Assembly: GCA_963799485.1 (NCBI GenBank)
Contig: CAWCXJ010000009.1
Location: forward strand, 96,001-160,000
Direction of reading: 5' to 3'
Length of the DNA stretch: 64,000 nucleotides
Source of the DNA: an uncultured Trueperaceae bacterium
GTDB lineage: Bacteria > Deinococcota > Deinococci > Deinococcales > Trueperaceae
Shown here: positions 45,887-61,747 of the stretch, piece by piece
How the letters are laid out: every line of letters starts with the position of its first letter
Position numbering within the stretch: position 1 is the first letter of the stretch
Made by a program: the position numbers and the translations under genes
Notes under the pieces: generated by a model
What the model was told of the DNA's origin: nothing
Databases searched by the model: none
Seen by the model: the letters and a program-made list of their open reading frames with translations, nothing else

Positions 45887-45959
45887 AAAAGTCTCCTATA
45901 TCAACATCTGCTATCAACAACAAGGTCTGCGCGTGTTTAGACGCAGCCACACAATACCT

Positions 45960-46230
45960 ACAGGCCGCTGACCTCACAGGCACGCCTTCAGGTTTTTCTA
46001 CCGGTTTTCGTAACGACTTTTTGCGCCGGTTGGGATTCCGGCAGGACTCGAGCATCAAAAGACGGGAGGGGCCCGCAGACAGCTTCGCATTTTCGGTACG
46101 GTTCGGGATGATAGCGCCGTCAACCGTTACCTTATCTTTTACCACCCGAACGCAATATATATGCGTGTCCGGGGGTAAAAGCCCTCCACCTCGTCACCTG
46201 ACTTGCAGCCAGCACTCGTGGCGCTAACGG
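45960..46230 (-). ncRNA. glmS ribozyme, variant with extra stems in the catalytic core
   Basis: Cleavage motif AGCGCC (A-1 at 46225), P1 CUGGCU/AGUCAG, GACGAGG (46195-46189), P2 GGAGGG (46187-46182) pairing with CCCUCC (46070-46065) preceded by UCUGCGG; located in the glmS 5' UTR. The 3' boundary is approximate. Confidence 0.8.
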
Positions 46231-46693
46231 TATCGGCTTATAAAACCGGCTTGGAACGCATAACCTCTAGAGGTGTAGCGCTTATAACCGGCTCACTAGA
46301 TAAGCTAAAACCTGCCGCAAATCAGGGCTTGCGCTTTCCCGAGAGTCTTCCCTCGCCCTCCTCCCACGGCTGCCCGACAACGAACATCGTGTGCAGCGCG
46401 TTTAAGACGCCCCGGTTCGCGGGGGCAATCTCACCGCTCTGCTCGAGCAGCGGATGAGCCAAGGTAGCCGACTAATGTGAACGGAACATGAAGCGCGTCA
46501 GGTCTCCGCCCGCGACATCCTCGGGTCCGGGCAGCGTAGCGCCCTGTGAAGGTCCGTGCAGAGGGAGAGCGGCAGTGTCAGCGCCGCACCTTAGTATTCA
46601 CCCAAGAGCAAGAGAAGGTTTCATTTTCGGTTCACCTTTTTCGTTTAAGTTTTCAGTGTTTTATAACGACCTCCAAAAATACTAGTTGGAGGT

Positions 46694-46779
46694 TCCTTTC
46701 GGAAGCGACGAAGTTTGTTCCCTATGTGGGCGCTTGGAGCAGATGGAGCTGGTAGCGCACCCGGCCGAAGCCGAAAGGA
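46694..46779 (+). ncRNA. c-di-GMP-II riboswitch (copy 1)
   Basis: GGAAGC..GAA-[GUUUGUUCC]-CUAUGUGG-GCGCU-U-[GGAGCAGAU]-GGAG-CUGGU-AGCGC-ACCCGGCC, with pseudoknot GCGCU/AGCGC and closing stem UCCUUUCGG/CCGAAAGGA. Confidence 0.85.
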
Positions 46780-46852
46780 CGTTGAGGTGAAGTGTTTCAA
46801 GTGGGTACCGTCGTTTTTGTTGTTTTTACAGTTCGCAAAGGAGATGGTTTAG

Positions 46853-49800
46853 ATGAGCCGCCGTTCATCTCTCGCCCCCCCCCACAGCTCAGCGCCCGAA
46901 ACCGTGCCCGTCAGCCTTTTTCTGGGCGCACGCGTACTGCTACCGCTGCTACTTCTCTTGGGTATTGCCGCTTGTAGTACTGCGCCTACCCCTGCTACGG
47001 TGACCGTCCAGGGAACCGATCCCGCGCTGATTGAAGATGTACAGCCACCTACTTTGCCCATCGAACCGGCAACCGACCCCCTGCCGCGGATCCCCGGAAA
47101 CGTACCGGTCGAGCCTACGCTCAACGCTTCTGCTGCACTCTCGAGTAAGGTGCAGATGCGCCTGTTGCTGATCAGCCCAACCGCTGATGACCCGGGTCTA
47201 GAAGCGCTCAAAGCGCTCTGCGATCAGGTGGGTGCATTGTGCGACACCTTCATTTCGTCGACGACGCCGTTGACCCGCAACGTGCTCGAGGATACGAGCA
47301 AAAGCGAAGGGAAATACCAGGGAATCTTTTTGACCGATAACCAGCTCGCCTATAACAGCGGTGGAAGCTGGGCCGTGTCTTTTGATGCCGACGAGTGGAA
47401 CACGCTCTGGGAGTACGAGCGCGATTACAGCGTACGCCAGGTTTCGCTCTTCACCTATCCCGGCTCCTATCCCGAACCCCAGGGCTTGACCTATGAAGGG
47501 AACGCGCCCGGAACTGCGCCGAGCACCGGCAAAGCCTATTACAACGCCTCGCTAACCGCCGATGGTCAGGATGTTTTTTCGTCGCTCAAGGCGAACGCGC
47601 CCATACCTATCCACTTTGCGTACACCTATCTGGCTAAGTTGGACCCCACCATTTCTTCAGCCAAGCCGCTCCTTCAGGACAGCTCCGGAAATGTGCTGGC
47701 CGCCACCTCGACCTCCCCTGATGGGCGGGAGCGCTTGGCGCTGAGTATGGCGCAGGCTCCGTTCCTGCTGCATAGCCAGCTGCTGACCTACGACCTGATG
47801 CGTTGGGTGACCAAAGGCGTCTTTATCGGTCAGCGGCAATTCTATCTGGGGATTGACCAGGACGACTTTTTTGTGCCGACCGATAAGTGGGACGCGACCG
47901 TAGGCGGCATTAACGGTCAGTACCGGCTGACTGCCCAGGATGTTGCGGGTCTCGTTGCCCAGCAGAATAAGCTCCGGAGCGCCTACCCCTTTGCCAAAGA
48001 CTTCGCCTGGACCATAGCGTTTAACGGTTCCTACGCCAACGAAAGTGCACCGAGCGACTGCAGCGCCGCCCCAGGTGGCCCTGACCCGCTGACTAGTGCG
48101 GCCCTGTGCTACAAGGGTGAGTTCTTTTGGCTTAACCATACCTGGACGCACGCGTTCATGGACAAAACGAACTACGCTACGTCGTTCAGCGAAATCGACC
48201 TTAATACAAAACTTGCCCAGCGCCTTGGCCTCACTACAAGTAAGTACGGCTTCAATAGCCTAGTTACGGGTGATATATCCGGATTGGGTTGGTACGCCCC
48301 TAATGGGCCTGACACCGGCCCCAAAGTCGACTTCGGCTTAAATGCGTCAAACCCTGAGTTCTTGAAAGCTGCCGCAGATGCCGGCGTCCGCTATCTCGCC
48401 TCGAACATGTCTGTGACGTCACAGGAGCCGGTGAACTGTTGGGGTTGCGGTATCACGCACCCGCTTAATTCAGACATCTTCTTGATTCCGCGTTGGCCAA
48501 CCAACCTGTTTTTTTCCCCGACCACACCCGTCGATATGATGGACGCCTACAACCGCGTCTACGGTCCAAGTGGCAGCTCCCCCTATTTCGACAAAAATCT
48601 CACCTATGACGAGTACCTTGACGTCGAGGCTGAAATTTCCCTTTTCCACGTCATCTCCGGTTCGCCTTATCAGCACTATCAGCACGTCGGCAACCTGCGC
48701 GAGTACGCTTCAGGCCGCAGCTTGGCCTACGACTGGGTAGAACGACTTCTCTCACAGTACAGCCGCTACTACAACAAACCGCTTAAAACGCTCGACTGGA
48801 AAACACTGAGCGAAACCGTTGCCAAACGCACTTCATTTAGAAAAGCAGGTCTTAGCGGCGTCTTGGATATGGCGGCCAAAACGGTTACTATCACCTCCGC
48901 CAACGGTGGAACACTCTACTTTACGCACGGCTCGAGCGCCACCATCGTTACGGACAGCCTTGGCGTAGGTCAAAGCAAGACCTTTAACGTCTCCTATGAC
49001 TATTCTGCTCCTAAAAACGCTCAAGAAATCACCTTCACCTCGGCGGCCCCGACCAACGCCACGGTAGGTGGCAGCTACACCGTCAGCGCCACGGCCAGCT
49101 CCGGCTTGGCGGTCAGCTTTGCCTCTACTACTACTGACGTCTGCACCGTTTCGGGCAGCACCGTCAACTTCGTTGCTGCTGGGGCATGTACGGTCGATGC
49201 GTCGCAGGCCGGGAACGAAACCTACAACCCCGCACCTAACGTCAATCAGACGTTTGCCATTACGGCAGCTCCGGTTGTCAAGCAAAACCAGACCATCACC
49301 TTCACCTCGTCGGCCCCGACCAACGCCACGGTAGGTGGCAGCTACACCGTCAGCGCCACGGCCAGCTCCGGCTTGGCGGTCAGCTTTGCCTCTACTACTA
49401 CTGACGTCTGCACCGTTTCGGGCAGTACCGTCAACTTCGTTGCTGCTGGGGCATGTACGGTCGATGCGTCGCAGGCCGGGAATGAAACCTACAACCCCGC
49501 ACCTAACGTCAATCAGACGTTTGCCGTTGCGGCAGCTCCGGTTGTCAAGCAAAACCAGACCATCACCTTCACCTCGTCGGCCCCGACCAGCGCCACGGTG
49601 GGTGGCAGCTACACCGTCAGCGCCACAGCCAGCTCCGGCTTGGCGGTCAGCTTCCGCACAGCTAATCCCAACAGATGCACGGTTTCGGGTAGCACCGTCA
49701 ACTTCATTGCCAGGGGCAGGTGCACTATTCGCGCCTTACAAGCAGGCGACGCCAGCTACAATGCGGCTCCCACGGTTTCGCAGTCTTTCGCGATCCAGGC

Positions 49801-50065
49801 AGTGGTCAAGCAAAACCAGACCGTCACCTTCACCTCGTCGGCCCCGACCAACGCCACGGTGGGTGGCAGCTACACCGTCAGCGCCACAGCCAGCTCCGGC
49901 TTGGCGGTCAGCTTCCGCACAGCTAATCCCAACAGATGTACGGTTTCGGGTAGCACCGTCAACTTCATTGCCAGGGGTAGGTGCACCATTCGCGCCTTAC
50001 AAGCAGGCGACGCCAGCTACAAAGCTGCGCCCAGGGTTTCGCAGTCTTTCACCGTGCGCCGTTGA
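46853..50065 (+). CDS. Agd3-like (CE18-type) polysaccharide deacetylase lipoprotein with four C-terminal Ig-like repeats
   Basis: Lipobox IAAC. Agd3-like motifs VRQVSLFTYP, RQFYLGIDQDDFF, WLNHTWTH, LIPRWPTNLFF and YQHVGNLR. Four ~88-aa beta-rich repeats. Confidence 0.8.
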   Translation: MSRRSSLAPPHSSAPETVPVSLFLGARVLLPLLLLLGIAACSTAPTPATVTVQGTDPALIEDVQPPTLPIEPATDPLPRIPGNVPVEPTLNASAALSSKVQMRLLLISPTADDPGLEALKALCDQVGALCDTFISSTTPLTRNVLEDTSKSEGKYQGIFLTDNQLAYNSGGSWAVSFDADEWNTLWEYERDYSVRQVSLFTYPGSYPEPQGLTYEGNAPGTAPSTGKAYYNASLTADGQDVFSSLKANAPIPIHFAYTYLAKLDPTISSAKPLLQDSSGNVLAATSTSPDGRERLALSMAQAPFLLHSQLLTYDLMRWVTKGVFIGQRQFYLGIDQDDFFVPTDKWDATVGGINGQYRLTAQDVAGLVAQQNKLRSAYPFAKDFAWTIAFNGSYANESAPSDCSAAPGGPDPLTSAALCYKGEFFWLNHTWTHAFMDKTNYATSFSEIDLNTKLAQRLGLTTSKYGFNSLVTGDISGLGWYAPNGPDTGPKVDFGLNASNPEFLKAAADAGVRYLASNMSVTSQEPVNCWGCGITHPLNSDIFLIPRWPTNLFFSPTTPVDMMDAYNRVYGPSGSSPYFDKNLTYDEYLDVEAEISLFHVISGSPYQHYQHVGNLREYASGRSLAYDWVERLLSQYSRYYNKPLKTLDWKTLSETVAKRTSFRKAGLSGVLDMAAKTVTITSANGGTLYFTHGSSATIVTDSLGVGQSKTFNVSYDYSAPKNAQEITFTSAAPTNATVGGSYTVSATASSGLAVSFASTTTDVCTVSGSTVNFVAAGACTVDASQAGNETYNPAPNVNQTFAITAAPVVKQNQTITFTSSAPTNATVGGSYTVSATASSGLAVSFASTTTDVCTVSGSTVNFVAAGACTVDASQAGNETYNPAPNVNQTFAVAAAPVVKQNQTITFTSSAPTSATVGGSYTVSATASSGLAVSFRTANPNRCTVSGSTVNFIARGRCTIRALQAGDASYNAAPTVSQSFAIQAVVKQNQTVTFTSSAPTNATVGGSYTVSATASSGLAVSFRTANPNRCTVSGSTVNFIARGRCTIRALQAGDASYKAAPRVSQSFTVRR
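49022..50060 (+). repeat. Four intragenic tandem repeats (267, 267 and 261 bp spacing)
   Basis: Units start at 49022, 49289, 49556 and 49817. Units 1/2 and units 3/4 are near-identical pairs. Confidence 0.95.
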
Positions 50066-50090
50066 GGAAACCTTTTTACGAGCCTTACAA

Positions 50091-50124
50091 GCCCTATGCA
50101 GCTTCAACTGAAGCTGCATAGGGC
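50091..50124. terminator. Long perfect hairpin after the deacetylase gene
   Basis: GCCCTATGCAGCTTCA-AC-TGAAGCTGCATAGGGC; no U-tract on the + strand. Confidence 0.6.
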
Positions 50125-50610
50125 GGAAAACACTATAGTTTTGGTTCTTACCCATCCAAGCTACCGAATGCAAAGGCGACGCACCTGAAGGCCAAACATG
50201 CACGTTACAACAAAAAGTATCGATTCCGTTTCAAAGGTGGACGGCGTTCGCCAAGCTGCTCGAGGTACCATAGTGGTTCGCCTATTTGACCAGATCTGCG
50301 GTGCCGCTCGCCCTTTGTAACGGGGTTTGGCTTCGCCGTCAACTCTCGCAGTGTCCCACGTTTACGTGAGTGTTTACCCTCGGCGGCGCGCTCGAGATTG
50401 GGGAGACGCGTCGCCTTTTGTTTTTGCGCCTTTTGTTCTCAAACAGTAACCTTGCGGCTCAAAGTAACCTTGACTTCTACAGGCTAACAGTTGCCCTTAG
50501 ACGCTGGTTTCGTGAACGGGCACGCTACCTTTTGCCTCATGGCGTTTTTGGAATGACTCAAGAAGCCTTGGGGTAGAACCAATCGCCACTACTATTTCGG
50601 GGAGGTTTAC

Positions 50611-51396
50611 ATGCGAGAAGTGCTTATGGGCATCTTTTTCACTCTCTTCTTGACCAGCTGCACCCAAGCTTTACTAAACCGTGAAAGTCAGGCTATACGC
50701 TGGCGTCCGAAACCCGGTACCTCGTGGCAGTGGCAGTTACAGGGAAAACTCGATACTTCATTCAAAGTCGACGCTTACGACCTTGACCTCTTCGATACGT
50801 CGGCGGCAACAATTGCCAAACTGCATAACCGGGGTACGAAAGTCATCTGCTATTTTTCGGCGGGCTCGTATGAGGCGTGGCGCCCCGACGCAGCAAAAAT
50901 ACCCAAAGCGGCGCGCGGCAAAAAGCTGCAAGGGTGGGATGAGTCGTGGCTCGATGTGCGCTCTAAGGGGGTAAAGGCTGTGATGCGCGCGCGGCTAGCC
51001 CTAGCCAGCAAAAAGGGGTGCGACGCTGTTGAGCCTGATAATGTAGACGGCTACAGTCATAAGACGGGTTTTGCGCTCACCGCAAGTGATTCGCTACGTT
51101 ACAGCATGTTTCTGGCACGTGAGGCGCACGCACGTGGTCTGAGCGTCGCGCTGAAGAACAATCTGGAACAGGTCAAGGTGCTCGAGCCTTACTTCGATTT
51201 TGCCATCAACGAAGAATGCCACGCTTGGCGCGAATGCGCCAAGCTTCAGCCCTTTATAAAGGCGCGCAAGGCTGTACTGGGGGTTGAGTACAACCTCAAT
51301 CCTAAAAAATTTTGTCAAAGAGCAAATGCAGCCGATATGGACTTTCTGAAAAAGCGTCCAAGCTTGGACGCTTACCGCGTTGCGTGCAGACCGTGA
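50611..51396 (+). CDS. GH114 endo-alpha-1,4-polygalactosaminidase-like lipoprotein (Ega3-like)
   Basis: Lipobox LTSC; SWQWQL, YDLDLFD, VICYFSAGSYEAWRPD, KGCDAVEPDNVDGY, ALKN, FAINEEC, VLGVEY. Confidence 0.92.
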   Translation: MREVLMGIFFTLFLTSCTQALLNRESQAIRWRPKPGTSWQWQLQGKLDTSFKVDAYDLDLFDTSAATIAKLHNRGTKVICYFSAGSYEAWRPDAAKIPKAARGKKLQGWDESWLDVRSKGVKAVMRARLALASKKGCDAVEPDNVDGYSHKTGFALTASDSLRYSMFLAREAHARGLSVALKNNLEQVKVLEPYFDFAINEECHAWRECAKLQPFIKARKAVLGVEYNLNPKKFCQRANAADMDFLKKRPSLDAYRVACRP

Positions 51397-51595
51397 CACC
51401 TGCAAGTCTGGTCGGTACTGCAAGAACCGCCGCACACTACCCTGCTGCTTCGGTGTGGATTTCACCTGTCTTTTATGCAATCGGCGTACAGACGATTGGT
51501 AGCCTTGATGAGCCGCTGGGCCGATGCTATGGCTTGCCGCAACCCCGAAGTTTACTGGCGCAGCGAGTACAAGGCGGCAATACACGTAGCGTAAC

Positions 51596-52981
51596 ATGAA
51601 GTTTCTCCGTAAATCGACGCAACCTTTTTATTATGATGGTTTCAGGACGAAGAAAGGAACCCGGAAAACCTTGAAATACAACCCCCACATCGTGCTCCTA
51701 CCAACGACATCCATAAGCTCGTTGTGCCTGCTTCTCTCGCTGTTTCTGGGGGCCACCAGTTGGGCCAGCGCCGAAAACGTAAGTGTGGCAGCCTTTCTTG
51801 GGTTGCTGCAGAACAGCCCAGAGCTTCAGGCCACGCGCGCTTCAGTCGCGGCTGCTGAGGCGGCCCTTAACCAGGCGCGCAAACCCGTTGCGCTCGATCT
51901 CAACGTAGCAGCGCAAACTCGCTCGGACCCGCTGGCCCCGGCTACCCCTGTCGCCAACCTGGGAACGGGTGTGACCGCCTATCCGTTTAACTACGGGCCC
52001 CAGGGTCAGACCGTCCGAACGCGCGAGTTGGAGCTCGCCCAGGCTCGGCTGAACTACCGTCAGGCGCTGGTGCGGCTAGAGATCAAGGCCTTAAGAAGCA
52101 CCTTCGAGCTCGAGTTGAACCGCCAAGCACTGGCGTTAGCACAGCGCGGCACCGTGGCGGCTGAGCAGATTCGTGAAACTACACAGCTACGCTATACCCA
52201 AGGCGTGGCGACAATTGTAGACGTGCGTAACGCAGAAGCCGAGGAGCAGCGGAAGAAAAATCTGGTATCGACCTTTGCGGCTAACTTGGAGCTAGCTGAA
52301 GCGACCCTCACGGAGCTGGTGGGGCAGGCGCGTTTAGCCCGGTTGCCCGACCTGAGGACGCCGGAAGGAACACCCGCAAATCTTCGTTACAGCGATATCA
52401 CCGTGCAGTTGGCGCGCATCGGTGCGTCGGGAGCTGTGCGCGACTTTTATCCTGTGGCTGAGGTGACCTACAACCTCGATCTGTCGGAACAAAGCCGGGT
52501 ATCTGCGTCACTCAGCTCTAGGGATCTGGCTCCGCGGGTAGGCTACACCTACGCGAGTAACGGGTGGGACGATGGCGTTAGACTTTCTGTTCGCCTCTCC
52601 ACGACGATTTCGCCCGAGCAGTTCCAAAACGTCACCCGCCTTGAACAGCTGCAAGTTGCTGCTGAAGAGAATCAACGTGCAGCGGAGCGCGACGCCACCA
52701 CGCAGGAAAGGCAGCTGTTAAACCGAATAGCGGAGACGGCGCGTAACAAAGAACTTGCGAGCTTTATCTTCAAAAATGCTGAGCGCTCACTTCGTGAGGT
52801 GCAGCAGCGGCAGTTGCTGGGTGTCGCCACGCCTCTCGACACCCAGCAGGCCGTTGTTGCCTTGGCGAACGCCGGCGCGTCGTTGTGGGATTCGCTGTAC
52901 GACGCCCGGCGTCAGCATATGCTGGCGCTCCTTGACCTTTACGAATTTTACGGTCTACCTGTCCTGGAGCTGCTCCCATGA
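51596..52981 (+). CDS. TolC/outer-membrane efflux-like protein 1
   Basis: Signal peptide, LQNSPELQA, coiled-coil helices with two G-x-A-T-x-x-D turns (QGVATIVDV, LGVATPLDT) and beta segments. Start may be TTG 51671. Confidence 0.75.
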   Translation: MKFLRKSTQPFYYDGFRTKKGTRKTLKYNPHIVLLPTTSISSLCLLLSLFLGATSWASAENVSVAAFLGLLQNSPELQATRASVAAAEAALNQARKPVALDLNVAAQTRSDPLAPATPVANLGTGVTAYPFNYGPQGQTVRTRELELAQARLNYRQALVRLEIKALRSTFELELNRQALALAQRGTVAAEQIRETTQLRYTQGVATIVDVRNAEAEEQRKKNLVSTFAANLELAEATLTELVGQARLARLPDLRTPEGTPANLRYSDITVQLARIGASGAVRDFYPVAEVTYNLDLSEQSRVSASLSSRDLAPRVGYTYASNGWDDGVRLSVRLSTTISPEQFQNVTRLEQLQVAAEENQRAAERDATTQERQLLNRIAETARNKELASFIFKNAERSLREVQQRQLLGVATPLDTQQAVVALANAGASLWDSLYDARRQHMLALLDLYEFYGLPVLELLP

Positions 52982-54003
52982 AGCTGACAACGATTGCTTT
53001 AACGCTGCTGATTCACGGAATGCTAACCATCGGCTACGGCCTATCTCTCGACGCCGCGCTCCAAAGCGTCCAGGAGCAGCCAGCAGTCGTGACGGCAGAG
53101 GAAGCGGTGAATGCCGCGCGGAGCGACCTGACCAGAACCAGAGCCGATCCATACGCGCTAACACGCGAAGTGTTTCTGGCAGAGCAGCAGCTGGCACTGG
53201 GCCAAGCGCAAGCCCGGCAGGCTTACTACAACGCGGTAAATGATATTGGCAACGCGTACTCTGCGGTGCTGCTGGCTGAGCTTGAGGCGCAGCTTGCAGA
53301 AGCTAACGAAGAGCTTAACCGGACGTACACCGAGACGACTCGGGCGCAGGAGCTAAACGGCGAGGCGACGGCCCTCGAGGTGCGCAACCTCGAGGCAGCA
53401 CTGGGTACAGCTGTAGCGAATCGGCGGAGCGCCGCGGAAACCGTAGCGGTAAGGCGCGGCGCACTGCGTAGATTGCTCTCAGCTAAAGTGGTGGGTGAGC
53501 GCCTGGAACCTATTCCCGATACGCGCCTCAACCAACCTCCACCCCCGCCGTACGAGCTTATCGGTAAAGCCAACGCACATATCGACCTTGTCTACGCTCG
53601 TCAAGCGGTAGCGCTGGCGCAGCTTGAGGTCGACTTGCTGGACCCAAGCTACAGCACTGCGCGAAACGTAAAGGCGGCAGAAACCCAGCTGGCAGCAGCG
53701 AAAACAACGTTGGCTACGGTGACCCGCTTACGCTACGACCAGATCTACCTCCTCTACGCGCAAGTCGAAGCTGCGCAGCGCGCCTACCGTGCTCAAGAGG
53801 AGACGTCGGCAGTAGCTCAAAAACAACTTGCGTCACAGCGCAACCAGTTTCTTTACGGCGCTATCTCGGAAACCGAGCTGCAACAGGCTAGGTACGCAGC
53901 GATTGCTGCTCAGCTCGAACAGCGGCGCGCCAAGCACAATCTTCTTACCTCGCTTCTCTCTCTGCAAACTTTAGCTGCAACTGACCTGCTGGCACCCAAC
54001 TAG
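52978..54003 (+). CDS. TolC/outer-membrane efflux-like protein 2 (short)
   Basis: Signal peptide, LSLDAAL, NGEATALEV, YGAISETEL; ATGA overlap with the previous gene. Confidence 0.72.
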   Translation: MKLTTIALTLLIHGMLTIGYGLSLDAALQSVQEQPAVVTAEEAVNAARSDLTRTRADPYALTREVFLAEQQLALGQAQARQAYYNAVNDIGNAYSAVLLAELEAQLAEANEELNRTYTETTRAQELNGEATALEVRNLEAALGTAVANRRSAAETVAVRRGALRRLLSAKVVGERLEPIPDTRLNQPPPPPYELIGKANAHIDLVYARQAVALAQLEVDLLDPSYSTARNVKAAETQLAAAKTTLATVTRLRYDQIYLLYAQVEAAQRAYRAQEETSAVAQKQLASQRNQFLYGAISETELQQARYAAIAAQLEQRRAKHNLLTSLLSLQTLAATDLLAPN

Positions 54004-54232
54004 TAGGGTAACAAGGGAGGTTGACGAAGTGAGGCCGAGTGATTGACGAAAAAGTGATGCGTCGCGGCAGCCCTGACTTTAGTACGAACCGCTAAGGTCG
54101 GCCCCGCCCAGACCTAAACTCGAGCAAAAAGGGAGAGTTACGGAATCGTCTCCCTTTTCCCCAACGGTTTAGACTAAATGCCGGGCATAACACGGCTCAC
54201 AACTCTACAGCGCTGAACGCAAAATGACTTAG

Positions 54233-55831
54233 GTGTCAGGTCGCCTCCAGCCCCTTATCCGGAGTCCAGATATCTACGGCTCGCCAGCAAAGAAGGGAAA
54301 CGTCATAAAACAGATTTCAATCGTCTTCTTTCTCTTTATCTTTACGGGTTATACTCACGCCCCGATTTCAGATGATACGGATAAAGCCCTGCAAAACCAG
54401 ACCTTTTCCTCGCAATACCGGCCCAGCTACGAAAACATCGCTAACCCCGAACGCGGCTTCTATCTCCATCCAGGTGACTGCGACAAGGTTCCCTTTAAGG
54501 CAGAGAAGCTTGCAGCTGAACGCAGGGGCGAACAAAAGATCAGCTTGGTGCTATGTATCTTCTATCTCGAGGATTTTAAGGACAAGCCCATCAGCGCGGC
54601 CAAGCTGGCCTTTTTTCAGCAACAAATTGAGGCGGTGCGAGCAGCAGGACTGAAGGTGATCCTGCGGTTTGCCTATACCTACTACGACCCCCCGGGTGAT
54701 AAGCAGCTGCCCCCGGGTGACGACGCCCCACTGTTCCGGGTAAGGGAGCATTTAAGCCAGCTCGAGCCCTACCTCCGGCGAAACAGAGATGTGATCGCGC
54801 TTGTAGAATCCGGATTCGTGGGTACCTGGGGTGAGGGTTACTACAGCCAAAACTTCGGCAATGCCGGTGCCGAGGATTGGGAAAAGCGCAAAGCCGTTGT
54901 CGACGAACTTTTGCGTATTTTACCCGGGCGCATGGTGCTCGTTCGGCGACCCAAGATGAAAATGGAGATGTACTTTCCCAGCCCCGGGAAAGCGGTTCCC
55001 GTAGCTGCGGGCAGCGCCTACGGTGACGCCCCGATTGCGCGAGTCGGATACCATAACGACTGCTTCCTGGCCAGCCCGGACGACAACGGCACGTATGAGG
55101 CTATAGCTGTGGAGAAGGCGTACCTAGCCGAGGACACGAAGTACGTCCCTATGGGGGGTGAGACGTGCGTGCCGAACCCGCCGCGCTCGCTCTGTGGTGG
55201 TGGGTTGGGTGAGCCGGGGAAACCGGGAGACGCGCTTAAAGAGTTGGAAAGGTTTCACTACAGCTACCTCAATGGGCGGCGCTCGCGTGAAGTCCTTGAT
55301 AGCTGGGCTGATGGCGGCTGTATAGAAAAGGTGACCCAAAGCCTTGGCTACCGCTTTTCTCTGGTATCGTCCGTCTTTCCACCTTCCGTAAGAGCTGGCT
55401 CGAGGCTCCCGGTCAAGGTAGGCGTCCGCAACACCGGGTGGGCAGCCCCGTTTAATTCGCGTCCGGTATATCTCGTGCTGCGCCACAGCAAGACCAAAGC
55501 GCTCTACTCCTTTAAGCTTGCTGCCAACGCCAGGGGGTGGCAAGCACAAACGCGCAGTCTAATCGACGAAAAAGTGCAGATTCCACCCACGATGCCTGCC
55601 GGAACCTATCAACTGCTCTTGTGGCTCCCGGAGCCGTCGGTCGCCGCGCCAGGTCAACCCGAACCATCGTGGTCTTTACATAAAAGGCCAGAGTACGCTA
55701 TCCGGATGGCGAACCTCGGAGTTTGGGATATGCAGGCAGGAAAGGAAACAGGCTTTAACCTTTTATCGAACACCTTGTGGACGAAGGCAGCGAAAAAACT
55801 TGTGCTGAATACGATCGAGGTAACGCCGTAG
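54233..55831 (+). CDS. DUF4874/DUF4832-type putative glycoside-hydrolase-like protein
   Basis: NPERGF, GLKVILRFAY, GFVGTWGEGY, RVGYHNDCFLAS.DD.GTY, MGGETC, LGYRF, NTGWAAPFNSRP, YAIRMAN. Start uncertain. Confidence 0.8.
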   Translation: MSGRLQPLIRSPDIYGSPAKKGNVIKQISIVFFLFIFTGYTHAPISDDTDKALQNQTFSSQYRPSYENIANPERGFYLHPGDCDKVPFKAEKLAAERRGEQKISLVLCIFYLEDFKDKPISAAKLAFFQQQIEAVRAAGLKVILRFAYTYYDPPGDKQLPPGDDAPLFRVREHLSQLEPYLRRNRDVIALVESGFVGTWGEGYYSQNFGNAGAEDWEKRKAVVDELLRILPGRMVLVRRPKMKMEMYFPSPGKAVPVAAGSAYGDAPIARVGYHNDCFLASPDDNGTYEAIAVEKAYLAEDTKYVPMGGETCVPNPPRSLCGGGLGEPGKPGDALKELERFHYSYLNGRRSREVLDSWADGGCIEKVTQSLGYRFSLVSSVFPPSVRAGSRLPVKVGVRNTGWAAPFNSRPVYLVLRHSKTKALYSFKLAANARGWQAQTRSLIDEKVQIPPTMPAGTYQLLLWLPEPSVAAPGQPEPSWSLHKRPEYAIRMANLGVWDMQAGKETGFNLLSNTLWTKAAKKLVLNTIEVTP

Positions 55832-56125
55832 CCAGCGGTTTCTTAACGCTGCGACCGACCTTGCTCTTCTAGCAGCTGAGGCACTAGCAGGAGGTTCGAA
55901 GTTTATCGCGCGAAACACCTGTAGCGAGCTCGGACGCAACCTCGCGCGTGGCGACTATGTCGGTGGGAGATTTTAAGAGGTCCGTGGCAGGGGGTTGAGG
56001 CGTCGGCTTCAGGGCGTGCCCCAAGCGGACGAAGTTCGGATGTGGAGGCTTCATATTCCATTCACTCTTCTTTATTAAGGTTGGGCAGCAGTGCAGATGG
56101 ACCTCGCGGCGCTTAAAACCGGAGG

Positions 56126-56213
56126 TTCCTGTGGGAAGCGTTGAAGTCTGTTCCTTATGTGGGCGCTTGGAACAGGTGGAGCTAGTAGCGCACCCGGCCG
56201 AAGCCGAAAGGAA
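56126..56213 (+). ncRNA. c-di-GMP-II riboswitch (copy 2)
   Basis: GGAAGCGUUGAA-GUCUGUUCC-UUAUGUGG-GCGCU-U-GGAACAGGU-GGAG-CUAGU-AGCGC-ACCCGGCC; stem substitutions relative to copy 1 preserve pairing. Confidence 0.85.
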
Positions 56214-56369
56214 GTAAACGTGAAGCGTGGTAAAAGCACAGATTTGTTGATAGCGGCTACAGCGCTCGAGTCACTCACAACTAAGATAAGCTGCCGTAAC
56301 GCCCTCGCCTTCTTTTTGACGGCTCCACTGCCCGCGCTGAGCGTTGCTGGTCGTAATATCGGTTTTATA

Positions 56370-56672
56370 CCTATAAGCTCACCGTATCAGCACGTTGATA
56401 AGCTACGCGCGCCTGCTTCAAGTCACAGTCTTGCCTGCAGTTGGGTAAAACGACTGCTCTCGCACTACAGCCGCTACTACCGCAAACCGCTTAAAACTCT
56501 TTACGCCGACGTGGTAGGCGCGACCTTCTGCAACACGAACCTTGGTGTTTGGAATACTGCCAGCAGCGTGAGTTTTTTTGCTCGCAGTAACGAGAGGCGC
56601 TTCGTCACCGGCGTAGGTAGCGTTTTCTTAAAGCGGACGAGCGCTGCTGGAGAAACCAAAACATTCAGCTAG
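56370..56672 (+). pseudogene. Decayed paralog of the Agd3-like deacetylase
   Basis: SSPYQHVDKLRAPASSHSLACSWVKRLLSHYSRYYRKPLKTL aligns with GSPYQHYQHVGNLREYASGRSLAYDWVERLLSQYSRYYNKPLKTL at ~48660-48793. Confidence 0.85.
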
Positions 56673-56771
56673 GAACTTTCAAAAGGCAGAGCGCAGGATG
56701 CACTCCGCCTCTATGGTGCAGTCTTTAAGTCGTTGACGACAATCAAAGCTGCTGCGGAAGGTGTAGGATAG

Positions 56772-58232
56772 ATGCGTATTCTCTTTACAACCGAAGGAAC
56801 CTATCCCTACGTGATGGGTGGCGTCAGTACGTGGTGCAACCAGCTTGTCGGTGGGCTGATTCAGACCGAGTTCCAGCTGTTGGCTGTCACGGGGCCGCAG
56901 CAGGTCGCACTAGGCTACACGCTCCCCAGCAACGTCGTTGGGCTGAAGGCGGCGCGGCTGTGGCGGCCCCGTGACGGTGTACGGCGCGCGCCACCTGCGG
57001 TGCGGCTCAGGTTCGACCACAACTTTTCTAGATTGCTAAAGTTTGTTGACGGTGATCTCGAGGAATTTTCGGACAGTCTTTTAGCCTTGGCAGAGCTGGG
57101 AAATACCTACAACCTCTGGCCTTTGTTTCAGCAGCAAGCCGTCTGGGTCAAGCTAAACGGTGCCCTGACGGACATCCTGGGTCGTCAGCCGATCTTGGCC
57201 GAAACGACGCTGGCGCTGAATTGGCTGCGCTCGACGCTGGTGCCGCTGCTATTTATCCCTGAACGGGCGGATATTGCTCACACAGTGGCAAATGGACTCT
57301 GCGCCGTGCCCGCCTGGGTGGCGGCTCAAGTCCACAGGATTCCCCTGATCTTGACCGAGCACGGCGTCTACTTGCGCGAACGTTATCTCGGCTTTAGCAA
57401 CGAAAATGATTTGCCGGGCGTACGGCTACTGCGCGCTCGCTTCCACCGCGCGCTGGCGCAACTTGTCTACCGTGACGCCGACCGGCTGCTGTCGGTCAGC
57501 GAGTTTAACCGCTGCTGGCAGATTAAACTCGGCGGCCCGGTCGAGCGTACGCAGGTCGTTTACAACGGGGTAGACCCGGAGGCTCTGCCGCTCGCTGACG
57601 GCGCGGACCAGGAGGTTCCGACAGTCTCGTGGGTGGGGCGCGTGGATCCGCTTAAGGACTTAGAGACGCTAATCCTTTCGTTCGTGGAGGTCAAGAAGGC
57701 AGTTCCGAACGCGCTGCTCCGCCTTTTCGGGCCGGTGCCTAAGGGCAACGAAGCCTACTACGAACGGCTCAAGTCGATCATTGCCGAACACAGTCTCGGT
57801 AATAACGTCTGTTTTGAGGGTCCAATCAGCCCGGTCTACAAGGCTTACCACGCTGCTGACGTAGTGGTGCTCTCGAGCATCTCTGAAGGATTTCCCTATA
57901 CGCCAATCGAGGCCATGATGTGTAGCAAGCCGGTGGTAGCCACCCGTGTCGGCGGGGTTGCCGAGGCGATCGGAGACTTGGGTCGTTTAGTCGAACCGCG
58001 TGAGCCGCTACAGCTGGGTGCGGCTTTGACTGAGCTGCTGCTTGACGCACCGCTGCGCCGGCAGCTGGGTGCGGCGGCGCGTGAGCGGGCCCTCGAGCAC
58101 TTTACGCTTATCGATATGAACAGCGCTTACGAACGGCTCTACCATGAGGTAGTAGCCGAGAAACGTGGCGAACACCCTAGAGTTGTCGCAAACGTAGCGG
58201 CGACTACTGAAGAAATGCAGGTCGCAGTATGA
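56772..58232 (+). CDS. pelF: PelF-like GT4 glycosyltransferase (DUF3492 plus GT4 C-terminal domain)
   Basis: TEGTYPYVMGGVSTW, LTEHGVYLRER, VYNGVD, VGRVDPLKD, SSISEGFPYTPIEAM, ATRVGGV. Confidence 0.9.
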   Translation: MRILFTTEGTYPYVMGGVSTWCNQLVGGLIQTEFQLLAVTGPQQVALGYTLPSNVVGLKAARLWRPRDGVRRAPPAVRLRFDHNFSRLLKFVDGDLEEFSDSLLALAELGNTYNLWPLFQQQAVWVKLNGALTDILGRQPILAETTLALNWLRSTLVPLLFIPERADIAHTVANGLCAVPAWVAAQVHRIPLILTEHGVYLRERYLGFSNENDLPGVRLLRARFHRALAQLVYRDADRLLSVSEFNRCWQIKLGGPVERTQVVYNGVDPEALPLADGADQEVPTVSWVGRVDPLKDLETLILSFVEVKKAVPNALLRLFGPVPKGNEAYYERLKSIIAEHSLGNNVCFEGPISPVYKAYHAADVVVLSSISEGFPYTPIEAMMCSKPVVATRVGGVAEAIGDLGRLVEPREPLQLGAALTELLLDAPLRRQLGAAARERALEHFTLIDMNSAYERLYHEVVAEKRGEHPRVVANVAATTEEMQVAV

Positions 58233-59545
58233 GTGCATATGGCGGCGTCGAGCCTCCCGTCTTTCACGTTTACGACCACGAGGCCGCCCACGCCGAGCGG
58301 CGCAGCAATACTTCGATCAACCAGCTTGCGCGGGCGCATAACCAGCTCTGTCTCGAGGCGTCTGATGCCTATGAGATTGCCGCGCATCTAGAGTCCCTCG
58401 GTTACAACAAGGCGAGCGTTGCGACCGAATACGGCGTCGCTGACCACTTTGAACTGGCGTGGATGCTTTTTCATCAGACCCCCCGGCGGCTCAAATTGCG
58501 CCTGCCCTCGAAGGTGGTGCGCGCCTCCTACGCGCGGCAAGCGATCATGGTGTTGACGCTACTCGTCACTTCTGGTATTGGGCTTATGAGCGAGGTGGGT
58601 GCCTGGGGGCCGGTAATTTGGTTGCTCGTCTGGTCACAGCTGGGAGGCGCTCTCCTCAACCGCGCCAAAAGCGAGTTGGCGACCCCGGATCACGCCCGTG
58701 TACTCTCGCTGCTGCTCAAACTGGGACTGATAGGGATGGTCGGGGTTTGGATTGTCACGCCGTTCGCGCTGGCGACCTGGACAGTTAGCGTGCTCTGGTT
58801 GGGTGTTGCCGCCCTACTCTGGGATGAGCGCTTGCGCGCCGCTTACGTCTTGCCCGCCGTCGCGGGTGGTTCGCTGGCGCTTACCCTGTGGTTGAACTTA
58901 CCGGGAACGGTCATGCTGGTGGTGTGCGGACTAGCAACGCTGGTTGCGTTACGGCCGCTTTTGGTCTGGTCTTCCCCGACGACGTGGCTGTGGGCGCTGA
59001 CCCAGTGGCGGCACCTGGCACCGTTTATCCTTTATGGCCTCGGGCAGAGCGCACTGCTTCTTGCGCTACTCTTTGGCGCTGGTAATGAGGCGCTGCCGGG
59101 GGTTGCGCTTTTCGCAGTCGTGCTGCTGATTGCCGAGCCACAGCTGTTATGGTTGCGGGGGCAGCTCAACCGCTACCTCTGGAAAGGGCAGGACGCTGCC
59201 AGTTACGCCTTCTTCGCGCGTCATATCATCGTCCGCTACACCAGTGTCTACCTGCTCCCTTTTCTGCCAGCAGTGCTCGTCTTCTTCTATCCCACCCTGT
59301 TTAACCCGCAGTGGTTTTTTCACCTTGCCGGGTTTGCGCTTTTTGGCATGATCTTGGCGTTGGCGCTGGTGTCGCTGGCGTTGGGAGATAGCCTCATGCC
59401 GGCGCTGGTTTTTGCTGTCGGCGGAGCGCTGGTGGTGCTCGGCTTACCTTTTTTCTGGGTAGCTGGTACCATGGCGCTGGCAGAATTTGCGATTCTCTTC
59501 AAGCGCAGCGCGCAGCTAGGCAGCTACGGTGTCTTCCTCCTCTAG
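58229..59545 (+). CDS. Polytopic membrane protein coupled to pelF (candidate polysaccharide synthase/export partner)
   Basis: ATGA overlap with pelF, soluble N-terminus (DAYEIAAHLESLGY...YGVADHFELA) and about 12 hydrophobic segments. Confidence 0.7.
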   Translation: MSAYGGVEPPVFHVYDHEAAHAERRSNTSINQLARAHNQLCLEASDAYEIAAHLESLGYNKASVATEYGVADHFELAWMLFHQTPRRLKLRLPSKVVRASYARQAIMVLTLLVTSGIGLMSEVGAWGPVIWLLVWSQLGGALLNRAKSELATPDHARVLSLLLKLGLIGMVGVWIVTPFALATWTVSVLWLGVAALLWDERLRAAYVLPAVAGGSLALTLWLNLPGTVMLVVCGLATLVALRPLLVWSSPTTWLWALTQWRHLAPFILYGLGQSALLLALLFGAGNEALPGVALFAVVLLIAEPQLLWLRGQLNRYLWKGQDAASYAFFARHIIVRYTSVYLLPFLPAVLVFFYPTLFNPQWFFHLAGFALFGMILALALVSLALGDSLMPALVFAVGGALVVLGLPFFWVAGTMALAEFAILFKRSAQLGSYGVFLL

Positions 59546-59549
59546 CCGT

Positions 59550-60242
59550 ATGCCACTAGCGGTGTTTTACGGTCACGGCGAAGTGGCTACGTTGCAACGC
59601 TTTCAGCGAGTGGTACTTCAAGCGCCCCACTACTCGAACGAAGACGTATGCGCGCTTAAAACTGCCAAAACCTCCCCCCTTGCCTACTTGAGCCTCGGCG
59701 AAGACGTTGGAGAGGACGCTCCCTGGCACCGCTCCGAACGCAACCCGGCCTGGTACGGACACTATATTCAGGCGGCGCACCCTGGCTGGTCAGCGCAGGT
59801 CCTAAAAACGGCCCAGATGCTTTTAGCGAGGGGCTTTGAAGGGTTTTTACTCGATACGCTAGACACGGTCGATCTGTTCCCCGAAGACCGCGACGCCTAT
59901 CTGCAGTTGGTTGCAGACCTTAGGCGTTTAGCGCCTCGAGGATATCTGCTGGCGAACCGGGGATTCTCGTTGCTGCCGGAGCTAGCTGAATATCTTGATG
60001 GGGTTTTGTTTGAAGCGTTTTCAAGTACTTGGCAAACCGACGGAACGACCGGGGCGCTTCCAGAGGGTGATCTCAAGATAAATGCAGACCGGGTAAGCAA
60101 GCTCAAAACGCTTGGTTTGGACCTCTACGCGCTTGATTATGTCGACACGCCTGCACTCGAGGCGATCACTCGTGACCGCGCCCAAGCGAATGGTCTAGTG
60201 CCGCTGATAAGTAACCGTAACCTTACTAAGCTTTGTTTTTAA
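59550..60242 (+). CDS. PelA-hydrolase-like (GH114/GH166-like) protein without signal peptide
   Basis: AVFYG, LAYLSLGE, RGFEGFLLDTLD, LANRGFSLL, GVLFEAF, LYALDY. Confidence 0.82.
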   Translation: MPLAVFYGHGEVATLQRFQRVVLQAPHYSNEDVCALKTAKTSPLAYLSLGEDVGEDAPWHRSERNPAWYGHYIQAAHPGWSAQVLKTAQMLLARGFEGFLLDTLDTVDLFPEDRDAYLQLVADLRRLAPRGYLLANRGFSLLPELAEYLDGVLFEAFSSTWQTDGTTGALPEGDLKINADRVSKLKTLGLDLYALDYVDTPALEAITRDRAQANGLVPLISNRNLTKLCF

Positions 60243-60351
60243 GAGAGCTTGTTTCTTGCTCGAGCTCAGTATGTAAAGTTACGAGTCGAATAGGGTATGT
60301 GGACACCAAACGCCCAAGAACCAGTCTAAGAACTCCTTTCAGGTGCATAAG

Positions 60352-60897
60352 CTACCAGAGCAGTAACACCCGCAAGCAGATAAGAATAGCCGAGACGGTG
60401 GCGTAAGCGAGGTAGTGTGCTGCTTTTCGTTCGTAACGGACGACTAAACCACGGCAGTTATCCTGCCAAGCGTTGACCCGCTCCACTTGCCAGCGCCTTT
60501 GACTGGCCGGGTACAACTTCGGCTTCGGTCCCTTGCGGCGACGCTTGCCGCTTCTCTTTCTTTCGGGTACGGCAGCGCGGATGCCCCGAGCCCGCAACGA
60601 CCGCCGGCGGTCACGGCTGTCATAGGCTTTGTCCATAGCGACTTCTAAAAGACGGGTTTTGGGACGACCCCGCCCCGCTTTAGGAACCCGTATCTTTGCA
60701 AGCACAGCGAGAGCCAAACTCGATTCGGCGGTGCTGGCGCTTGCCAGGGACAAAGCAACCGGAATGCCGCGGGCTTCACTTGCAACCATCAACGTAGAGC
60801 CTTTTCCTTTGTACCCGTGGTCGATGTTGTCGCCCCCTTTTTGCCGACACAAAGCTCCCGTCTAATGTGCCCTCGTCGAGACTGAGTTTCCCCTTTT
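60352..60897 (-). mobile_element. IS5-family transposase 3' part, truncated at an IS1 end
   Basis: LDGSFVSAK, then AAAAAGGGGG slip site, then GYKGKGS, MDKAYDS and RWQVERVNAW...LVVRYERK. Confidence 0.85.
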
Positions 60898-61747
60898 GGT
60901 AATGACCACCCACTTACTGATAAGCTAAGAGACGATCATTGATTCAAAAACGTATAGCTGCACTGCTTGCAGCAGTGAAAACATCGTAAGAAATGGCAAG
61001 AATCGCTACGGTAAGCAGCAGTTCAAGTGCAAGGATTGCAGCAAACAAGGGGGGCTTGAGCCGAACGTCAAGGATAGCGAGGCACGAAAGCAAGAGATTC
61101 TCGCGGCTTACCGAGAGCGTCCGAGTATGCGTGGGATCAGGCGTATCTATGGCGTCAGCCAACCCACCTTGGCGAAGTGGCTCGAAAAAAGCCCGGAGTT
61201 GTAAGCTCAGCGAGACTGTGAGTGAAGCTCGACCAGATGACGTGCTCGAACTCGATGAAGTCTGGTTATTTGTCCACGACAAAAAGCAGAAATGCCGGTT
61301 ATGGACAGCCATGTGTCGCCGCACACGGCAGCTTGTTGCCTTTGTCATAGGTGATCACAGCGCCAGAACCTGTACCCGGCTATGGGCGAAACTTCCCGCC
61401 ACCTACAAACGTTGTCACAGCTTTAGTGACTTATGGGTTGCGAAGCCCTCCGATAGGAGACGTTTACACTAAAGTCTTTTCTCAAGAAACCCATTGCAGC
61501 GTTGCTAAAGGCGCAGGTGAAACCAACCATATGGAACGTTGGCGCAGCACGCTTAGGCAGTGGACAGGTCCGGAAGGCTGGAACTTCGCACCCTTGTGGT
61601 GTGCCGCTTTGTCCAAGACAACGCCTAGCCCGTTATGTTCGTAAAACCCTCTCGTTCTCCAAGTCCGACGCCATGCATCATACTGTTACCAAGTGGTTCA
61701 TCGCTGAGTACAACTTAGGCTGTATCAGCTAGCGTTTAATCATTACC
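60898..61747 (+). mobile_element. Full-length but disrupted IS1-family element
   Basis: Ends GGTAATGA...TCATTACC. InsA CTAC..NIVRNGK..QQFKCKDC, slippery GAAAAAAG, InsB LELDEVWLFV, TNHMERW, RYVRKTLSFSKS. Two small inserts; no target duplication. Confidence 0.9.

Follow-up and report, generated by a model that had tools for sequence, protein, structure and literature searches.

We examined a 64,000-nucleotide stretch from an uncultured Trueperaceae bacterium (assembly GCA_963799485.1, contig CAWCXJ010000009.1, positions 96,001 to 160,000; hereafter the window, numbered from its first base), in which a putative exopolysaccharide locus at 46.7-60.3 kb combines genes resembling those for bacterial Pel and for the galactosaminogalactan (GAG) of Aspergillus with riboswitches for cyclic di-GMP (c-di-GMP). 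The host genome comprises 3.66 Mb in 15 contigs and is 99.99% complete. The locus holds eight plus-strand open reading frames (ORFs), all intact and with conserved motifs, and the families that a sequence-only reading had named for these eight co-oriented genes were confirmed. In order they encode an Agd3-like CE18 deacetylase with a CBM87 module (46853-50065), a GH114 protein resembling the endo-alpha-1,4-polygalactosaminidase Ega3 (50611-51396), two TolC-like outer-membrane efflux proteins, OEP1 (461 residues, 51596-52981) and OEP2 (341 residues, 52978-54003, overlapping OEP1 by 4 nt), a DUF4874/DUF4832 protein (54233-55831), a PelF-like GT4 glycosyltransferase (56772-58232), a polytopic membrane protein of 438 residues (58229-59545) and a 237-residue homologue of the PelA hydrolase domain (59529-60242). 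The sequence-only reading had begun the locus at 46694, but this position is non-coding and coincides with a class-II c-di-GMP (c-di-GMP-II) riboswitch (46692-46775), the first ORF beginning at 46853 right after a TAG. In the 941-nt gap before pelF we found a second such riboswitch (56126-56208) followed by the remnant of a second Agd3-like gene (56221-56672). The locus is not one tight operon, as its units are separated by gaps of 546, 200, 230 and 941 nt, and a perfect inverted repeat (50093-50123, plus strand), read directly from the sequence as a terminator-like hairpin lacking a T run, lies 28 nt 3' of the Agd3-like stop codon; this repeat was not among the sites returned by a consensus terminator scan.

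An Rfam scan of the whole window gave exactly two matches, both full-length class-II c-di-GMP aptamers on the plus strand (RF01786, model positions 1-84 of 84 in each), scoring 62.1 bits for aptamer 1 and 62.3 bits for aptamer 2 against a gathering score of 53.5. Aptamer 1 ends 77 nt 5' of the Agd3-like ATG and aptamer 2 sits 563 nt upstream of the pelF ATG. Because there are two riboswitch copies, the region contains a direct repeat (56121-56228 against 46688-46795) that is 87% identical. When 45800-60900 was scanned permissively with Rfam, no RNA other than these two aptamers turned up; in particular, the stretch from riboswitch 2 to pelF showed no group I intron, in contrast to the C. difficile case of PMC12564702. 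A consensus promoter scan returned one site against 4.8 expected. The genome as a whole has four RF01786 aptamers and 17 GGDEF matches; the fourth riboswitch (C6:190309-190391) precedes a 783-residue ORF that has no Pfam family above cut-off and only a weak acidic-repeat match.

The product of the first gene matched Agd3_CE (49.6 bits) and CBM87_Agd3 (41.4 bits), each against a Pfam cut-off of 27.6, and the Agd3 structure 6nwz (E 4.9e-17), with its DD and HTWTH stretches aligning with the Agd3 motifs. Its C-terminus is made up of four repeats of ~89 residues each (DNA 49028-50089), and it is a predicted lipoprotein from a lipobox (IAAC) read by eye. A run of nine C residues at 46875-46883, in codons 8-11 and before the signal peptide, is a possible slipped-strand site. 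The remnant behind aptamer 2, found by tblastn and blastn, lies in frame within an ORF that begins at a GTG 13 nt past the aptamer, and its catalytic region is missing; it is 72% identical to residues 609-647 of the Agd3-like protein over 39 residues (E 3e-14), and its DNA at 56385-56500 is 78% identical to 48677-48792.

The GH114 protein had a strong match to PF03537 (E 1.4e-83) and matched the Ega3 structures 6oj1 and 6ojb at E 4.4e-50 over residues 29-231, and it too is a predicted lipoprotein (lipobox LTSC, read by eye). The earlier proposal of Agd3/Ega3-type maturation is thus upheld by Pfam together with the structure matches to 6nwz and 6oj1. According to the part of Bamford et al. 2020 (PMC7229062) that deals with these enzymes, those of the Ega3 type are specific for deacetylated GAG. 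The last gene product matched the PelA hydrolase domain (5tcb, E 1e-24) and, weakly, GH114 (E 1.8e-7). Its catalytic-position Glu, E162, aligns with the residue at which the mutant entry 5tsy departs from 5tcb, and all 12 of 12 family members have it. A signal-like N-terminus was seen in none of these 12, and the window copy has no N-terminal hydrophobic segment.

The DUF4874/DUF4832 protein (Pfam E 2.2e-41 and 4e-58) had no match to PDB sequences at E <= 1. Its AlphaFold2 (AF2) model (pLDDT 83.4) shows a TIM barrel with a C-terminal beta-sandwich; the best Foldseek match was the Psl hydrolase PslG (5bx9, E 4.5e-8, with a TM-score of only 0.30), and the matches listed for the model were mainly glycoside hydrolases. 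Its nearest named homologues are actinomycete and myxobacterial (~50% identity), and there are homologues inside three canonical pelF-pelG loci (L032, L035 and L038). DUF4832 genes are described as accessories of Gram-positive pel loci in the relevant part of PMC7112168, and SIR_1591, a DUF4832 protein of Streptococcus intermedius, is reported in PMC12345266 to be an active hydrolase that disrupts Pel-dependent aggregates. Given the pel-locus homologues, the activity of SIR_1591 and the hydrolase-like model, we accept the protein as a third hydrolase candidate of the pathway.

Synthesis had been attributed to a PelF-type enzyme, and this proved well founded: the glycosyltransferase passes the NCBIfam PelF model (NF038011, 155.9 bits against a cut-off of 100), matches Pfam DUF3492 (E 2.3e-47) and Glycos_transf_1, and is the only copy in the genome above the NF038011 cut-off. 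In a quick maximum-likelihood tree of 46 PelF-like proteins with four other GT4 proteins of the same genome as outgroup, all PelF-like proteins clustered together apart from those four (SH-aLRT 94), so the enzyme does not group outside the PelF clade. The tree resolved three subclades, a Deinococcota type (support 95), a PelG-associated type (100) and an actinobacterial type (99), and the window protein falls in the Deinococcota type, outside the canonical PelF subclade. Its gene overlaps the membrane-protein gene by 4 nt, and the latter overlaps the PelA-hydrolase-like gene by 17 nt.

The membrane protein encoded next to PelF belongs to no Pfam or NCBIfam family, and only 22 homologues, none of them named, were found among 5.8 billion clustered proteins. 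Its AF2 model (pLDDT 83.1, pTM 0.73) has ~12 transmembrane helices, preceded by an N-terminal helical domain of ~90 residues; residues ~88-438 of the model align with MATE, MurJ and Wzx structures, and they form a twelve-helix, two-lobed fold. PelG itself is predicted to be MATE-like. From gene position and predicted fold we therefore read the protein as a MOP-superfamily fold in PelG's position. Kinship with PelG or with the actinobacterial partners was considered and rejected at the profile level (probability 0.6% for the membrane protein against PelG, 0.3% for it against the actinobacterial partners and 0.1% for these against PelG), and when a hidden Markov model (HMM) built from the N-terminal domain was searched against PelG and actinobacterial partner proteins, the best E was 0.73. 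A language-model atlas alone placed Actinomycetota hypothetical proteins nearest the membrane protein (score 0.95), and we treat that kinship as a lead and not as evidence.

Structure prediction supports binding of PelF to this membrane protein. The modelled complex had a median ipSAE of 0.67 over three runs against 0.00 for the best control, a mark that 116 of 157 solved complexes attained, as did 2 of 215 mismatched pairs (rough counts, as our own alignments were used for this calibration). The runs share at least 63% of contacts, and the partner pLDDT is at least 77. The predicted interface involves residues 120-150 and 201-226 of PelF and, on the partner, the N-terminal domain (40-58, 74 and 86-91), the cytoplasmic loops 148-151 and 316-326 and the C-terminus. 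Of 364 Deinococcota genomes, 85 matched a profile of the membrane protein; in family f1 and genus g35 the match spans the full length, and in families f2 and f5 and genus g38 only the N-terminal ~90 residues. In the latter three groups the domain is kept inside ORFs of ~263-1008 residues, and in one genome (G045, locus L068) such an ORF comes after a PelF-like gene. It is the docking domain that seems to serve as the partner family's conserved signature, the membrane part diverging.

The remaining canonical Pel proteins were sought in the whole genome. The sequence-only reading had seen no recognisable PelD, and indeed PelD_GGDEF (PF16963) had no match at E <= 1 in this 99.99%-complete genome; the same was true of PelG (PF16933). 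A tblastn search of the genome with 13 proteins of two canonical pel loci (L031 and L032), among them their GAF-containing PelD-like proteins and the TPR and other proteins encoded upstream of their pelF, yielded no match at E <= 0.01; tblastn is insensitive here, and the naming of L031 and L032 proteins as PelB, PelC and PelE follows from position and TPR content only.

OEP1 (74.6 bits in two stretches) and OEP2 (25.2 bits in one stretch) pass the Pfam OEP cut-off of 22 and score far below the cut-offs of the NCBIfam TolC models. Both have paralogues in a second operon of the same genome (C13:243000-256000) that is also headed by a c-di-GMP-II riboswitch (aptamer C13:253454-253537, minus strand): OEP1 is 48% identical to the protein encoded at C13:249700-250917, and OEP2 is 44% identical over 330 residues to the 363-residue OEP of that operon. 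The gene order there is a GH115_C-like protein of 671 residues, OEPs of 460 and 363 residues, HlyD, a Wzx-like Polysacc_synt_3 protein, a GT47-like protein and a GT2, and a congener (G001) keeps this order at least through the Wzx-like gene, with a GT2 further downstream. A polysaccharide operon of the Wzx type that includes a TolC pair and an HlyD adaptor is unusual. By analogy, a role of the window pair in polysaccharide export is plausible, and the pair is the weakest member of the locus.

To see how far this arrangement recurs, we considered 39 genome loci that encode a PelF relative, 38 of them with tblastn matches, together with 21 further loci and four more (63 in total with the 38). 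The closest relatives (L009-L012, 48-55% identity) come from Deinococcales, the Thermus/Deinococcus group or Trueperaceae, and in all four the genes for the same membrane protein and for a PelA-hydrolase-like protein come after PelF, with an Agd3-like gene directly upstream of PelF in two of them (L011 and L012). Of the 38 genome loci, 4 have the PelF, membrane-protein and PelA-hydrolase-like genes side by side, as do most of the 21 additional loci; an Agd3-like gene was nearby in 20 of 38, mostly in Actinomycetota. In canonical loci of Verrucomicrobiota, Planctomycetota and Pseudomonadota a Pfam PelG follows PelF, whereas the partners in Deinococcota and actinobacteria have no Pfam family. 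The core of Agd3, PelF, membrane protein, PelA hydrolase homologue and GH114 recurs in Deinococcota. The idea of a single eight-gene pathway did not survive, since the TolC-like pair stood beside none of the 63 related loci (0/38, 0/21 and 0/4) and DUF4874/4832 beside three, all of them canonical pelF-pelG loci.

One group of relatives shares the riboswitches. In genus g12, all six genomes with the membrane protein have one or two RF01786 matches within ~6 kb of the locus, to one side of it or to both, and in the four that were checked the layout is a riboswitch, an ORF of 272-280 residues, Agd3, PelF, the membrane protein and the PelA hydrolase homologue, met from the opposite strand by a GH114 gene with its own riboswitch, so that the synthase operon and the convergent hydrolase gene are both riboswitch-led. 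The 272-280-residue ORF starts 13-14 nt after the aptamer and has no counterpart in the window; a copy on a metagenome contig (L074:352-1179) has a lipoprotein-like N-terminus and no Pfam family. The metagenome contigs L074 (with two aptamers), L075 and L077 have the same layout as g12, although L074 is identical to the locus of genome G322 over the printed stretches and is not independent of it, and contig L073 has a truncated aptamer (40.2 bits). In the quick tree the window PelF groups with the riboswitch-bearing metagenome contigs. The sequencing runs listed for this DNA included none of RNA, and three metagenome DNA runs contain 0.05-0.22 of the sampled words. Genome G320 has two tandem Agd3 copies, which parallels the duplication that we propose below for the window. 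As a separate observation, several related genomes have same-strand c-di-GMP-II aptamers in pairs ~130-180 nt apart, start to start (e.g., G315:C237:37493-37576 and 37669-37751; also on G320:C38, G323:C82, G328:C11, G333:C7, G322:C53, G334:C27, G032:C9 and others), and these look like tandem riboswitches.

Taken together, we consider it probable that the locus is a Deinococcota Agd3-PelF cluster making a partly de-N-acetylated alpha-1,4-linked N-acetylgalactosamine/galactosamine (GalNAc/GalN) polymer, and that c-di-GMP acts on it through RNA and not through PelD; by analogy with the known enzymes, the product is most likely a Pel/GAG-like matrix. Riboswitch 1 would head the Agd3-like gene unit, and riboswitch 2 a unit in which the Agd3 remnant precedes pelF and the membrane and PelA-hydrolase-like genes; we infer that these leaders respond to the ligand with ON or OFF polarity and that transcription reads through the 563-nt leader. 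Docked on the membrane protein's cytoplasmic face, the cytoplasmic PelF-like enzyme would polymerise a UDP-hexosamine; in the model it contacts the partner's N-terminal helical domain, loops 148-151 and 316-326 and C-terminus. The membrane protein would stand in for PelG, with the polymer crossing the inner membrane through or beside the MOP-fold protein. De-N-acetylation would then fall to the Agd3-like CE18 lipoprotein, trimming or release of the polymer may be the work of the Ega3-like GH114 lipoprotein and of the TIM-barrel DUF4874/4832 enzyme, and the TolC-like pair might serve as the polymer's outer-membrane exit. As to origin, the ancestral unit may have resembled that of g12 (riboswitch, Agd3, PelF, membrane protein and PelA hydrolase homologue, facing a riboswitch-led GH114 gene); the riboswitch-Agd3 segment would have been duplicated and one copy have decayed, the block of GH114, the two OEPs and DUF4874/4832 having come between the two riboswitch-Agd3 copies.

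We would go further only tentatively, to a minimal Pel-type synthase that consists of PelF and a MOP-fold partner without PelD, PelE or PelG, receives its c-di-GMP input from riboswitches and has as its exit the heteromeric TolC-like pair, a kind that the riboswitch-led C13 operon would use as well, a proposal that we regard as rather doubtful in this complete form. In that proposal the partner's N-terminal domain would dock the transferase, and riboswitches would lie on both the synthase and the deacetylase/hydrolase transcripts. If true, the control point of a second messenger can shift from protein to RNA, and a two-protein core may suffice for polymerisation and export. The parts open to testing are the two aptamers, the PelF/partner pair with its predicted interface and the three candidate alpha-GalN-polymer hydrolases, which could also be tried as biofilm-dispersal enzymes.

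Several observations weigh against a c-di-GMP-controlled Agd3-PelF cluster. On the side of the RNA, the minimum-free-energy folds of the two leaders were not better than shuffled sequences (z -1.12 and +1.86), the terminator scan did no better than chance (16 sites found, 16.3 expected), riboswitch 2 is set apart from pelF by a 563-nt stretch of decayed gene, and the window's GH114, OEP pair and DUF4874/4832 genes have no riboswitch of their own. There was no RF01786 match near the locus in 24 of 30 related genomes with the full-length membrane protein, and loci L009-L012 have no riboswitch; RNA control is a conserved trait of one sub-lineage that includes the window locus, not a property of the whole system. 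On the side of the proteins, the membrane protein has no profile similarity to PelG (hhalign probability 0.6%), the signal-less PelA hydrolase homologue would not fit the periplasmic trimming role of PelA, and the OEP pair, besides its absence from all related loci, lacks the HlyD partner of its C13 paralogues. A Pfam scan found no UDP-GlcNAc 4-epimerase in the locus; the only gene above the GalE cut-off sits on contig C12 and is a GalE-family gene. Lastly, the membrane protein and the locus are found in none of five congeners and insertion sequence (IS) elements flank the locus, which suggests horizontal acquisition; the window locus may be a recent, possibly decaying acquisition.

The strongest competitor to this reading, which we consider quite possible, is that the island is a mosaic in which only riboswitch-Agd3, GH114 and riboswitch-pelF-membrane protein-PelA hydrolase form the system, the TolC-like pair and possibly DUF4874/4832 being passengers. 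This would account for the absence of OEP1 and OEP2 from all 63 related loci and for their having as closest relatives a paralogous pair in a different operon; the 200-941 nt gaps between units, the IS5 and ISL3 remnants that flank the locus and the actinomycete and myxobacterial affinities of DUF4874/4832 point the same way. However, the doubtful genes sit among the Pel-related genes and run in the same direction, the OEP paralogues themselves belong to a riboswitch-led polysaccharide operon, DUF4874/4832 recurs inside canonical pel loci, and a DUF4832 protein acts on Pel.

The two alternatives that follow are both unlikely. One is that the polymer is different, e.g., GlcNAc-rich or mixed, and that our GalNAc assignment by analogy is wrong: the locus has no epimerase, its PelF is in a subclade separate from canonical PelF, and the GalNAc donor for PelF is assigned by analogy, but three independent enzymes (GH114/Ega3, the PelA hydrolase and the Agd3-type CE18 with CBM87) point to alpha-1,4-GalN(Ac). 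The other, to which we give equally little weight, is that the window copy is a decaying, non-functional acquisition. The absence of the locus from the congeners, the Agd3 remnant, the flanking IS fragments and the lack of the 272-280-residue ORF of g12 would suit decay; against this, the eight ORFs are intact with conserved motifs and both aptamers are full length. Least probable of all is a mainly degradative or defensive locus whose secreted enzymes attack the GalNAc polymers of neighbouring fungi or bacteria, for although three predicted hydrolases and a deacetylase accompany a single glycosyltransferase and Ega3-type enzymes have the specificity noted above, the PelF-like enzyme and the MOP-fold membrane protein are translationally coupled and the model of their complex is supported, across Deinococcota this PelF-membrane core is kept together with Agd3 and GH114, and hydrolases are standard parts of synthase-dependent systems.

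The 3' side of the locus is bounded by an IS5-family transposase fragment on the minus strand (60352-60852; NF033580, 96.9 bits against a cut-off of 110, profile positions 114-258 only), beyond which an ISL3-family transposase (61929-63553, plus strand) is split into two ORFs, with positions 1-107 of the Pfam profile DDE_Tnp_ISL3 in one and 110-239 in the next. The divergent upstream neighbour is glmS (44066-45886, minus strand; NF001484, 860 bits), and the gathering-score Rfam scan of the window contained no glmS ribozyme. Farther upstream, the minus-strand segment 30327-40425 has two very long ORFs (2466 and 943 residues) without a Pfam family, and its GC content is 62-68%, compared with 52-63% in most of the window.

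Compared with PelABCDEFG of P. aeruginosa, the Trueperaceae locus shares a PelF-family GT4 and a homologue of the PelA hydrolase domain and, presumably, c-di-GMP dependence and a GalNAc/GalN polymer. It differs in that searches of its genome turned up neither PelD nor PelG nor any further canonical Pel protein, in that the deacetylase is of the CE18 Agd3 type and not the PelA deacetylase domain, and in that PelA is an exported fusion of hydrolase and deacetylase whereas the window has a stand-alone 237-residue hydrolase domain with no signal sequence. Sensing of c-di-GMP would be by messenger RNA leaders and not by PelD, through which, to our knowledge, c-di-GMP acts in every Pel system studied. 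In B. cereus, for example, action through PelD is described in PMC7112168. The Gram-positive pelDEADAFG loci (Whitfield et al. 2020, PMC7112168) and the pel locus of S. intermedius (PMC12345266) have in common with the window the PelF core and a DUF4832 accessory, but as presented in the parts of these papers that describe the loci they keep PelD, PelE and PelG and their deacetylase is PelA_DA; the word riboswitch occurs 0 times in PMC7112168. With the GAG cluster of Aspergillus fumigatus (Uge3, Gtb3, Agd3, Ega3 and Sph3) the window shares Agd3 (CE18 with CBM87) and Ega3 (GH114), but its glycosyltransferase is PelF-type and separate from the membrane partner, its host is a diderm bacterium, and a Pfam scan of the nine locus ORFs found neither an epimerase nor the spherulin-4 (Sph3) family.

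The nearest precedent is Bamford et al. 2020 (Nat Commun 11:2450, PMC7229062), whose operon list contradicts the earlier supposition that no such architecture had been described in Deinococcota. The operon survey in that paper places Agd3 homologues in Deinococcus-Thermus, all in operons with a glycosyltransferase that is cytoplasmic and with a multi-spanning membrane protein and usually with GH114, and in its Supplementary Data 2 the Thermus brockianus entry reads 'Agd3, GTB, TM, GH114', with variants of this in the entries of Meiothermus ruber, Deinococcus marmoris and D. grandis. This is the same core in the same phylum (an Agd3-like CE18, a GT-B glycosyltransferase, a transmembrane protein and GH114), and the window belongs to this class, having an Agd3-like CE18 with CBM87, a GT-B enzyme adjoining a transmembrane protein and GH114-type genes. 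The architecture is thus known at catalogue level. The lists in that paper, however, give genes only, with no riboswitch, no naming of PelF and no fold for the transmembrane protein, and their Deinococcus-Thermus entries show no TolC-like or DUF4874/4832 genes, unlike the window. Our full-text search of the literature, which left subscription-only papers outside its scope, found no paper that describes a riboswitch ahead of a pel or agd3 locus and only Bamford et al. treating the cluster in Deinococcota, so that, as far as these searches show, the cluster type has been catalogued in this phylum but not studied experimentally. Within this literature, what appears to be new is the predicted class-II riboswitch control of a PelD-less PelF/Agd3 system, the model-based assignment of the partner to the MOP fold together with its predicted docking of PelF, and the addition of a DUF4874/4832 gene and of TolC-like genes to the Deinococcota core.

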